A DNA stretch of 63,771 nucleotides, filler included, from Trichomonas gallinae (lineage: Eukaryota): assembly GCA_008369845.1 (NCBI GenBank). It is 5 parts of 5 records of this genome, joined end to end, with 100 filler letters (N's around TTAATTAATTAA, not from the genome) between each part and the next. Parts side by side here need not be neighbours in the genome. Positions count along the whole stretch, not along the records: positions 59,805 to 63,771 come from MRSU01001395.1; 4 more parts are not named here. One strand, written 5' to 3'. The position numbers and the translations under genes are program-made. The notes under the pieces are model-generated. The model did not search any database. It saw only the letters and a list, made by a program, of their open reading frames with translations, and was not told the DNA's origin. Positions 6,505 to 60,539 of this stretch are shown here, piece after piece (the stretch's first letter is position 1; every line of letters starts with the position of its first letter).

Positions 6505-7290
6505 CTAATTATCCTTCGAGTTTTGTTCAATTGATAGTCTGATTTCGCGCATAATTTTTTCATGCTTTTCTTTCGAGTCTTTGATCTTTTGTTCGATCTC
6601 ATCTGTCTTCTGTTCGACCTCTTTGATCTGAGAGCGCAATTGTTCGGCGCGCATTCCGATTTGTCCACTTTGTGTTTCTTCTTGGATCTTCTTTTCTTGT
6701 TTGAGCTTTTTGATTTTGGCTGCAAGCTTTGCATTAGCGTTTTCGTACTTTCTAAGCTTCTCTTCAAGCATTTGAATCTTATTTGCTTGCTTTTCGTATA
6801 CAGCTGGTCCGTTTGTTGCCAACAATTCATCCAACTCACGTTTTGCATTACTGAGATCGATTTTCTGCTGGCATTGAAGATCGTGGAGTCTTAGACGCTC
6901 TTGATAAATAATTTTTGCTTCTTCCTGAAGCTCTTGGCGTTCAGCTGCATTATCACTTCGAAGTAAATCGTTGATTTGAGCATTTTGCTGTCTAATCAAA
7001 TGCTCTACGGACTTGTATTCACGATCAAGTTGTGTTAACAAGTTTTGATTCGAAGTCCCAGACCTTGTTGAGCGCTTACTTTGAGTCTCTAATCTGACTA
7101 TTTTCGCTTTCAACTGAGTACGTTCGTCTATAAGGCGTTGTTTTTCTATCTTAAGTTCGTTAACATCTTCTTTCGTGACGTGGGCTGATCTTAAGCGTGA
7201 AGTTGTCGTTTTGTCTCTCCTTGGATCATGCAGAATGTTGTATGGCTTATCAGGAAGGTAACTACGGCCAGATTGACTTCCTCTCCTCAT
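6505..7290 (-). CDS. Coiled-coil hypothetical protein
   Basis: 261-aa ORF, K/E/Q/L-rich heptad pattern. Confidence 0.75.
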   Translation of the reverse strand: MRRGSQSGRSYLPDKPYNILHDPRRDKTTTSRLRSAHVTKEDVNELKIEKQRLIDERTQLKAKIVRLETQSKRSTRSGTSNQNLLTQLDREYKSVEHLIRQQNAQINDLLRSDNAAERQELQEEAKIIYQERLRLHDLQCQQKIDLSNAKRELDELLATNGPAVYEKQANKIQMLEEKLRKYENANAKLAAKIKKLKQEKKIQEETQSGQIGMRAEQLRSQIKEVEQKTDEIEQKIKDSKEKHEKIMREIRLSIEQNSKDN

Positions 7291-7916
7291 TTTTGTTTGT
7301 TATCGTTTAAAATAATCGTTTTTTAAATCATAAATTCAATAAATTTTAGTGTTTTTAGCATCTATATAAATACATTAATCGAAATCACATAAAATTTTTG
7401 GATTTTGATTTTCATTGACAAAATTGCATATTTCTCGATAATAAAAAATATTATGTTTCTAAAAATCCAATAGACCAAAAATTTATTTAGTCATTAAATA
7501 ATATAATTTATAAGAATATATATAATACCTATTATTTAAATTTTAAAAATATTGGTATACAACTATTAAAAATCATTAAAAATAAATTTTTGATTTTGAT
7601 TAATAAAAAATCTGAAAATTTGGGGATAGATATATATACTTGTATACACTTTGAATTTTATATGAAAAGAAGGAATATATTTTGATTTTTTCATTCAATA
7701 TAAGAGAATACAGAAATGAAAAAAAAAAAAAATCGGAAATGATGAAATGATGTTTTTATATGAATACTTTTCATTATCTATTTTTTATTTGTTCAAATAT
7801 TTTCCGAGATTTCTGAATTCGTAGGCTGTGTAAAACCTGTTTGTGTTTAATATATAGTCTAGCTTGGTCAATTTATTCGAAAGTTAAGGTCTAATAAAAA
7901 ACTAATTTCAATAACA

Positions 7917-26521: not shown

Positions 26522-27625
26522 CTAAACTTTTTCCCATCCAGGTACAAATAGCGGCCCCATAAAGGGTGAATCCGCACGGCTTCTCATTTTAATGCGCGAG
26601 GAACCCTTAGAAATGATAGTAAGAATTGCGTTAGATTGTAAGTGATTCGCTTTTTTCTTGATTTTTCTGTTACATTCTTTTAGCATATCTGCAACTTCAT
26701 CATGGTCTTTCTCATCAAGAGGGAGAGGCGCTGATGATAACAAATCACTGTATTTGTTTAATGTGAATGCGGCTTTATTTCTGAAAAATCCTTTGTGAGA
26801 GTGCTTCGTGGCTTGAATTCTTTTGAGTAGAGGTAATTGTAATATCGTATCTATTGGCATTCTATTAGTAGGGTTACAATCGCACATTAACATAATAACT
26901 TCTTGAACATCTTTTGGAATTTCTGGCGAAATGGCAAGTTGTCCTTTGAGGATCTCTTCTTTTGCGAGCTTTGGATTTTCACAACTCCAAGGTAATTGTG
27001 CGGATACAATAATATGGAGAAGAACTCCGCAGCTCCAGATATCAGCAAGTATTGGGTTATAAGGAGATCCCTGCAAAATCTCAGGCGCTATATAATAAAA
27101 TGTGCCGCATATCGTTCTTCTAATCTCATTAGCTCTCACGTGTAAAGAGAATCCAAAATCTCCTAACTTAGGCGTGAGCATCTCGTCTAATAATATATTT
27201 TCAGCTTTTATATCGCGATGTGCTATATTATTTGAGTGAAGAAAAGATACTGCGGATAATATTTGATGAAAGATTTGTAACGCCTGAGATAAAGGCAGGG
27301 GCTGATTCTTTGATATATAGGAACTAAGATCTCCGTTCCCACAGTATTCTTGTATCATATAATAATTTACTGAGTCTTCTAATAAATCGTATAAAGTTAC
27401 AATATTTGGGTGACAAAGCGACATCATGTTTCTTACTTCTGATTGGAAATGTATTACTTGCTGGTTATTGTGAAAATATCGTTTTGAGACAATTTTAATT
27501 GCATAGATTTTCTGTGTATCTGAATTAGTCGCCTTAACGACAATACACGACGTGCCCATGCCGATGGATTCCCCTAAAACGTAAGGGCCGATGCGTTCGG
27601 GGCATGAGGCACGAAGAATGTTCAT
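26522..27625 (-). CDS. CAMK-family Ser/Thr protein kinase
   Basis: YAIK, HRDIKAEN, DFG, CGT.YYIAPE, DIWSCG. Confidence 0.93.
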   Translation of the reverse strand: MNILRASCPERIGPYVLGESIGMGTSCIVVKATNSDTQKIYAIKIVSKRYFHNNQQVIHFQSEVRNMMSLCHPNIVTLYDLLEDSVNYYMIQEYCGNGDLSSYISKNQPLPLSQALQIFHQILSAVSFLHSNNIAHRDIKAENILLDEMLTPKLGDFGFSLHVRANEIRRTICGTFYYIAPEILQGSPYNPILADIWSCGVLLHIIVSAQLPWSCENPKLAKEEILKGQLAISPEIPKDVQEVIMLMCDCNPTNRMPIDTILQLPLLKRIQATKHSHKGFFRNKAAFTLNKYSDLLSSAPLPLDEKDHDEVADMLKECNRKIKKKANHLQSNAILTIISKGSSRIKMRSRADSPFMGPLFVPGWEKV

Positions 27626-27707
27626 TAATTAAGGGGGTAGGTTTGAATAGTTTACATTTTTATACTTATTTGCTTCCTAACGCCTCATAGTCGAGTATTA
27701 GCTAAAA

Positions 27708-53885: not shown

Positions 53886-53958
53886 GGCACGATGGCCGAG
53901 TGGTTAAGGCGTGGGATTAGAGTCCCCATGGGCTTGTCCCGCATCAGTTCAAATCTGG
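53886..53958 (+). tRNA. tRNA-Ser(AGA), 3' end cut by the contig end
   Basis: GGCACGA TG GCC-GAGTGGTTAA-GGC G TGGGA-TT AGA GT-CCCCA, long variable arm TGGGCTTGTCCCGC, ATCAG-TTCAAAT-CTGG. Confidence 0.85.
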
Positions 53959-56534: not shown

Positions 56535-56707
56535 TTTTTAAGATTCAAGGGTCACACCCTAAATAAGCCATCGTGAAAATTTTTGACAATTAAATTATTT
56601 TATGTGTCAGTTTTATATCTCAAAGGTCGTTGGTTCAAGTCTGATGCATTTGTTGTTTTGATTTTAATGTAAAGTATATAAATTTTAATGCATCCAAATT
56701 CGTCACT

Positions 56708-59704: not shown

Positions 59705-59804
59705 NNNNNNNNNNNNNNNNNNNNNNNNNNNNNNNNNNNNNNNNNNNNTTAATTAATTAANNNNNNNNNNNNNNNNNNNNNNNNNNNNNNNNNNNNNNNN
59801 NNNN
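59705..59804. other. Artificial contig linker
   Basis: N44-TTAATTAATTAA-N44. Confidence 0.97.
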
Positions 59805-60172
59805 ATGTAGTCGTCGTTTCCTCCCTCGGAGTTCTCCACAAGAAGTCAATGGAGAAGCTCGCAAAGCTCCTTGACGTCAAGAAGACAGCGAGAGCGCGCC
59901 TCGAAAGGTACCTCTCCAACGCTGCTATCATCGGTTCTTATCACTGTTTCCACCGTGAAGACATCACAGGAAACGCAGATGATGAGCAAGACTTGAATGC
60001 AGAAGAACCATAAATATGAAGACCCTCTCACTCAAGTCAACCACAATATGAAGAAAGAAAATAACATGAAAAAAAAGAAAAAAAGAAAATTATAATTTTT
60101 AAAATTTTATTCAGGTCCGAATAGGACTTTTTCGAGCCTGCAACGGCACGAAAACAAATAAGAATAAATAAT
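59805..60172 (+). mobile_element. 3' end of a putative RLE-type (NeSL/R2-like) non-LTR retrotransposon: ORF C-terminus 59807-60013 plus 3' UTR
   Basis: GC-rich frame VVVVSSLGVLHKKSMEKLAKLLDVKKTARARLERYLSNAAIIGSYHCF...*, resembling the hhhSSLG...S...L..LL...LS.AAI.GS tail of RLE elements; A-rich UTR with two hairpins; begins at a contig break. Confidence 0.68.
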
Positions 60173-60196
60173 TCGGTTCGATTCCGGCCTGCCCCT
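60173..60196 (+). tRNA. 3' fragment of a tRNA gene (T-arm, acceptor 3' strand, U73), tRNA-Cys-like
   Basis: TCGG-TTCGATT-CCGGC CTGCCCC T with a perfect B-box GGTTCGATTCC; no 5' half upstream. Confidence 0.78.
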
Positions 60197-60202
60197 CGCT
60201 GC

Positions 60203-60214
60203 TTTTTTTTTTTT
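60203..60214 (+). terminator. Pol III-type oligo-T terminator
   Basis: T12 begins after a 6-nt trailer following the discriminator base. Confidence 0.65.
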
Positions 60215-60539
60215 CATAACCGAAATTTTTGTCTTTTTGTTCAGCTTTAAAAGGATCTGTTTCAATGCAATGTTAATTCTTTTTATATTCTTAAGAATTA
60301 TGGTGCTAAATCTAACACTAACTGACTTCCAGTTACTTTATCGCATATTCAGTTCAGTAATTAAACTCCGAAACCATTAACACGGTTCACAAATGCATAG
60401 AAACTCTATAGTCCAGATAGAAATTTGTCTAGATTTTCTTCAATTAATGTCACAATATGATTTTTCAAACGAGAATATAAACATCAATAACCATATTCTG
60501 CCACGCCCCCTGCATTAGTAAATATTAGGGGGTGGTCTC

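Follow-up and report, generated by a model that had tools for sequence, protein, structure and literature searches.

The window, that is the whole 63,771-nucleotide stretch of Trichomonas gallinae DNA that was analysed, offers for direct observation an ORF tail with recognizable homology, a 3' UTR, a tRNA piece with a terminator and a host of the genus Trichomonas (Table 1). The frame encodes 68 amino acids up to its stop codon and reads open into a scaffold gap, a gap form that occurs four times in the window. GC content is 50% in the frame, 28% in the UTR and 29% in the downstream flank. The end of the UTR abuts the tRNA piece directly and in the same orientation, with no intervening bases. 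Downstream lies a ribosomal protein L9 gene that has 90% identity to L9 of Trichomonas vaginalis and 59% identity to L9 of Tritrichomonas foetus. All parts described in an earlier note on this DNA (frame, UTR, tRNA positions 50-73, trailer and T12) were recovered at the same positions.

Table 1. Features of the locus, in window coordinates.
Feature	Position	Strand	Basis
Scaffold gap, 44 N + 12-base spacer + 44 N	59705..59804	.	
RLE non-LTR retrotransposon ORF tail, last 68 codons and stop	59807..60013	+	homology
3' UTR, 159 nt, A-rich middle	60014..60172	+	sequence
Predicted three-way RNA fold at the UTR 3' end, 73 nt	60100..60172	+	folding energy versus shuffles
Inferred element/tRNA 3' junction	60172..60173	+	base 60172 unable to pair with C65
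tRNA positions 50-73: T-arm with B-box, 3' acceptor strand, T73	60173..60196	+	
6-nt trailer and T12 (T12 at 60203-60214)	60197..60214	+	sequence

Among 104 longer-protein candidates, the 68-aa tail matched a single one, the 239-aa protein P0002, with 72% identity over 61 aa. P0002 contains C37, C40, H51 and C56 (a CCHC knuckle), followed by RH, KPD, E126 and K..KY, the restriction-like endonuclease (RLE) motifs that have been mapped in R2Bm (PMC4838377). Against R2Tg chains P0002 scored E 1.6e-7, and its residues 172-220 aligned to the R2Tg C-terminus. The predicted model of P0002 (mean pLDDT 82.5) has a strand at 167-175 and helices at 183-193 and 197-220, and in a structure search with this model seven R2 chains ranked first (best E 8.5e-13, TM 0.70). 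The closest solved structures to P0002 are those of R2 (R2Tg and R2Bm; PDB 9dou, 9nl3, 8gh6), with which it has in common the CCHC knuckle, the RH, KPD and K..KY motifs and the C-terminal fold, at an identity of about 24% in the structural alignment. According to the model, the residues in the window correspond to the fourth and last nuclease strand, the two terminal helices and an acidic tail.

At E <= 0.001, P0002 had 334 relatives. Among the 150 of these 334 matches that were listed, all 23 relatives of at least 1,700 aa carry RVT_1, and none of the 23 has a listed AP-endonuclease family. A profile of 12 relatives matched R2 (E 9e-95) better than LINE-1 (E 8e-37). The CCHC and the catalytic PD..(D/E)..K residues are nearly invariant across the 12 aligned rows, and P0002 has them as well; RT, CCHC and catalytic residues were seen in the relatives, the window holding the last strand and the helices only. 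Pfam made no call for the 68 aa (best E 0.18) or for P0002 (best E 0.025), the ESM Atlas returned generic RT clusters only, and other pieces of the element were not found elsewhere in the window. The earlier note had read the peptide as an RLE tail, and the protein search bears this out: the match has RLE motifs and resembles R2 by sequence and predicted fold. A non-mobile host protein was rejected, since the homologues are RT-RLE ORFs. By homology, the identification of the peptide as the tail of an RLE non-LTR retrotransposon is secure.

We also searched for relatives that come with their DNA. Protein relatives were found in two of 227 candidate stretches in metagenome contigs (L004 and L005) and in none of 56 candidate stretches in viral contigs. 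L004 and L005 each consist of one ORF longer than 2,260 aa that has a UCH and an RT domain. The database proteins nearest to them group with P0002 in a 26-row clade (SH-aLRT 99) of a quick tree, which was built from 112 of 162 rows without the window peptide or named references and places the relatives only. Another clade member, P0175 (NCBI MGI6156760.1), is assigned in the database to a bacterial MAG (Enterococcus lemanii), likely as a binning contaminant. The UCH domain (PF00443) was present in three of the 28 relatives scanned, at aa 422-678 in L004, aa 419-689 in L005 and aa 533-801 in P0067, and our literature search found no report of such a domain in RLE retrotransposon ORFs. Nematode NeSL, in contrast, has a Ulp1 protease; a Ulp1-like protease was not listed in the 28 scanned relatives, and the window lacks the N-terminus.

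No tRNA was found in the 96-nt 3' flank of L004, where the contig ends. In L005, past the structured UTR of the ORF, GAATAAA stands at 7203 (stretch 7203-7245, + strand); behind it come 14 nt readable as tRNA positions 60-73 and a T-rich stretch. The acceptor strand of these 14 nt is the complement of the 5' end of T. vaginalis tRNA-Phe, which faintly suggests that the flank might be a tRNA-Phe 3' end and thus a third T-arm target. We treat it as a lead only, because it was recognized post hoc. Rfam gave nothing useful on L004 and L005, and relaxed ARAGORN calls on both were noise-like and disregarded. At the contig end of L005 (about 7270-7320) there is a GC-rich hairpin of about 50 nt without Rfam match.

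The 3' UTR was then examined for RNA structure. Its last 73 nt, a stretch picked by eye from a range given in the earlier note, fold at -19 kcal/mol (z -4.8), and none of 200 shuffles was as stable; for the whole 159-nt UTR z was -1.8, with 12 of 200 shuffles as stable. The predicted fold closes about 4 nt ahead of the junction, and a GAATAAA at 60162-60168 ends 4 nt before it. For target-primed reverse transcription (TPRT), the R2 protein binds the 3' UTR (PMC13580325), and the fold in the window is a candidate RNA-binding site of the element protein.

Behind the junction the letters read, in order, TCGG (positions 50-53), TTCGATT (54-60), CCGGC (61-65), CTGCCCC (66-72) and T73 at 60196. No D-arm or anticodon arm lies upstream of this piece, an absence that the earlier note had pointed out and that was confirmed. 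A complete bacterial tRNA-Phe (L003) has the letters of 60175-60195 unchanged at its positions 52-72, and the piece thus has real tRNA 3'-end architecture. Trailer and T12 likely serve the split tRNA gene as its RNA polymerase III terminator. Judged by pairing, the junction would lie between tRNA positions 49 and 50; were C50 present in the intact gene, it would lie between 50 and 51.

A T-arm-and-terminator descriptor, composed after the feature had been seen, matched four of 20,000 dinucleotide shuffles of 60014-60300, a chance of about 2e-4 for the tRNA piece at the UTR end; the expected number of such matches is about 1.7e-4 per 300 nt. Applied to the whole window, it gave 0.07 matches per shuffled window (100 shuffles) and two in the real window (60176 and 56633, the latter unexplained), and the shuffles may thus understate the background. 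This second T-arm-like motif (about 56625-56650, + strand) has a weak stem and a T-run downstream, and would be either a decayed tRNA remnant or a chance occurrence.

In whole-window scans, neither ARAGORN nor Rfam called the 24-nt piece a tRNA; when it was scanned alone in Rfam, the best tRNA-clan match was the T-arm of tmRNA (E 0.58). The whole-window scan also overlooked a 73-nt cut tRNA-Leu that reached E 2e-4 in Rfam when alone. This second tRNA piece, at 53886-53958 (+), comprises the first 73 nt of a tRNA whose anticodon loop carries TAG and whose variable arm is long, is cut by a gap, and was not called by ARAGORN. A GC-richer, non-coding-looking stretch at 27590-27707 (+), directly before the first gap, had no Rfam match in the whole-window scan either.

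The 21-base tRNA end had three matches in prokaryote genomes (one called tRNA-Phe, two uncalled) and none in viral contigs, while the 23-base form with T73 had none in metagenome contigs; a literature search for the tRNA end gave no match. An intact gene with the same 3' end was not found in the viral, prokaryote and metagenome collections, which by design are without Trichomonas genomes. A tRNA-like stretch in a Bacteroides MAG (L001, about 955-1025) has the 21-base end and is not called by ARAGORN.

Eukaryotic tRNA-Cys often begins with a run of G, and the discriminator T73 (U73) agrees with the identity requirement of tRNA-Cys. U73 is not unique to Cys: the identity table of PMC9976931 gives it for eukaryotic Cys, Thr and some Gly, and requires G71 for Gly, A70 and C68 for Thr, and U70 for Ala. 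With C71, C70 and G68, the window conflicts with what is required of eukaryotic Gly, Thr and Ala tRNAs, a comparison that did not exclude Gln, Asn and unlisted isoacceptors. The T. vaginalis tRNA-fragment primers of PMC7844918 provide about a dozen acceptor ends, of which, in our mapping, none fits the window and two end in T. tRNA-Cys, the isotype named by the earlier note, is still the best fit; going by the acceptor strand and U73, with the anticodon outside the sequence, the split tRNA is probably tRNA-Cys. tRNA-Phe was rejected despite the bacterial match, since position 73 of the bacterial gene is A and the T. vaginalis tRNA-Phe seems to begin with a different acceptor, and tRNA-Ser was rejected because it needs G73. 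Positions 61-73 also differ from the tRNA-Pro end at the target of NeSL-1_TV, an element of T. vaginalis.

NeSL-1_TV corrects one claim of the earlier note, which was not aware of tRNA targeting being described in parabasalids. It is tRNA-Pro gene-specific (Kojima and Jurka 2015, PMC4640811), and in S6 Fig of that article five 3' and six 5' junctions fall within the tRNA-Pro(TGG) T-arm; its authors could not resolve the clade placement of NeSL-1_TV. Like the element in the window, it is an RLE element of a Trichomonas host that sits in a tRNA T-arm in the same orientation, and GAATAAA precedes the 3' junction in both, by 6 nt in NeSL-1_TV and by 4 nt in the window. The 5' junction of NeSL-1_TV lies after position 51 and the 3' side resumes at C56, with 4 nt lost (our numbering), whereas the window resumes at 50, 6 nt apart, and keeps the whole T-loop. 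The targets differ as well, the tRNA-Pro(TGG) having another 3' end than the tRNA in the window, and by eye the last 50 nt of the two elements have nothing obvious in common except GAATAAA. The element in the window works like NeSL-1_TV yet differs in target and junction, and it is known here from one truncated copy.

The common genus, arm, orientation and GAATAAA near the end would also suit an orthologue of NeSL-1_TV with loose specificity, which reads a common T-arm feature and has here hit a second tRNA. Planarian elements lend this some support, LIN15 being found in four tRNA-Arg genes and LIN25 in several tRNA-like sites (PMC4640811). The 6-nt offset of the 3' junctions and the last 50 nt argue against such an orthologue, as does, weakly, the finding that no named T. 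vaginalis protein was among the 25 relatives looked up, and we regard it as unlikely.

Other elements are further from the window. The NeSL-related planarian LIN15_SM (target tRNA-Arg) and LIN25_SM (tRNA-Glu) are also RLE elements that target tRNA genes (PMC4640811); their 3' junctions, however, lie in the tRNA 5' half, either in the D-arm or close to the start, and they concern different isotypes and an animal host. R2 targets 28S rDNA, whereas the window flank is a tRNA 3' end, and Rfam listed no rRNA in the window. Seven trichomonad genomes contain 5 to 127 NeSL elements each (PMC12289875, Table 2), counts that may include the window locus, and the T. vaginalis NeSL1 entry in the supplement of that article (6,104 nt) begins with a tRNA-Pro 5' part. 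An RLE element in tRNA-Cys was not found in the literature searched; Repbase or Fell et al. 2025 may already list the family.

Contigs of runs X1-X6 were aligned to the window. In run X1, 6 of 1,986,391 contigs aligned on 59806-60300, five of them on the tRNA piece, and these five have at least three distinct downstream flanks, none of which is that of the window. As X1 contains several trichomonad L9 variants, the flanks may stem from several species and not from several copies. In three X1 contigs the alignment starts precisely at 60173 and leaves another 5-6 letters unaligned, which weakly hints that intact genes may have T50 and that the junction would be 49/50. ORF relatives in X1 and X2 show 11 and 10 differences in 62 nt and continue 254 and 218 letters beyond 59925, and no joint to the tRNA piece was listed for them. 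As the window junction is 247 nt from 59925, these continuations are neutral on the joint. Runs X3, X4 and X5 gave no aligned contigs and X6 gave L9 only.

The X1 contigs also bear on whether the tRNA piece, trailer and T12 are the element's own 3' tail, acquired once by read-through, with the real target after the T-run. One short X1 contig spans 60176-60208, including the trailer region, with three differences, and the planarian elements LIN24 and LIN26 end in poly-T tails (PMC4640811), both in line with such a tail. It is quite improbable nonetheless: the three contigs that begin at 60173 do not extend into the UTR end despite their 5-6 remaining letters, and in NeSL-1_TV both the 5' and the 3' junction genuinely lie within a tRNA.

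The earlier note had proposed an element whose 3' junction lies in the T-arm. The position of the junction fits the sequence and the NeSL-1_TV precedent; the specificity of the family, for which one copy was examined, is inferred and not counted from copies. It would follow from the low chance odds, the NeSL-1_TV precedent and the weak tRNA-like flank of L005. A single locus cannot demonstrate specificity, and HERO-clade RLE elements are often non-specific (PMC4640811), as would be an element of little or no target preference that met the tRNA gene by chance. With four of the five RLE clades mostly target-specific in the same article, and a T-arm with terminator expected as rarely as the shuffles indicate, we consider a chance hit very unlikely. 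Least credible is an assembly error that joined two collapsed repeats near the contig end: a scaffold gap is 370 nt away, a gap truncates a second tRNA of the window as well, and none of the aligned contigs bridges the junction, but the two sides have no repeat in common that could have led to a false join, the fold of the UTR closes immediately before the junction and the geometry is that of the known element.

The reading we favour, and hold with reasonable confidence, is that the 3' end of an R2-type non-LTR retrotransposon of a Trichomonas is joined to tRNA positions 50-73, likely via site-specific TPRT and likely in a tRNA-Cys gene. Following R2 biochemistry (PMC4838377, PMC13580325), the element protein would bind the folded 3' UTR of its own RNA, recognise the tRNA gene and nick its non-coding strand at about the 49/50 boundary. 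The freed 3' end would prime cDNA synthesis from the RNA 3' end; the other strand would then be cut and the copy completed. Such an insertion would split the internal promoter by moving the A-box away from the B-box, which would stay downstream together with the terminator. The tRNA positions 5' of the junction are predicted to lie in the gap, as is the rest of the element. One tRNA copy would be killed by the insertion, a loss that is tolerable because the gene would be multicopy.

The known mechanism is unchanged by this finding, which consists of one gap-truncated copy. It likely represents a second tRNA target in Trichomonas; the tRNA-targeting habit is known, and only the target is likely new. 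Of tRNA-gene-targeting RLE families a handful are known, one of them from Trichomonas, and another such family in this genus, placed in the same arm but in a different tRNA and 6 nt off, would provide a close pair for the question of target change. More tentatively, and doubtful in its full extent, the locus might belong to an undescribed Trichomonas RLE family specific for tRNA-Cys 49/50, within a gut-protist radiation that shifts tRNA and T-arm position (Pro 55/56, perhaps Phe 59/60 in L005) and in which some members carry a ubiquitin-hydrolase domain. If true, this target-shift series would be a natural experiment in which RLE elements change their target around a conserved B-box, and target change bears on the use of RLE proteins as gene-insertion tools (PMC13580325).
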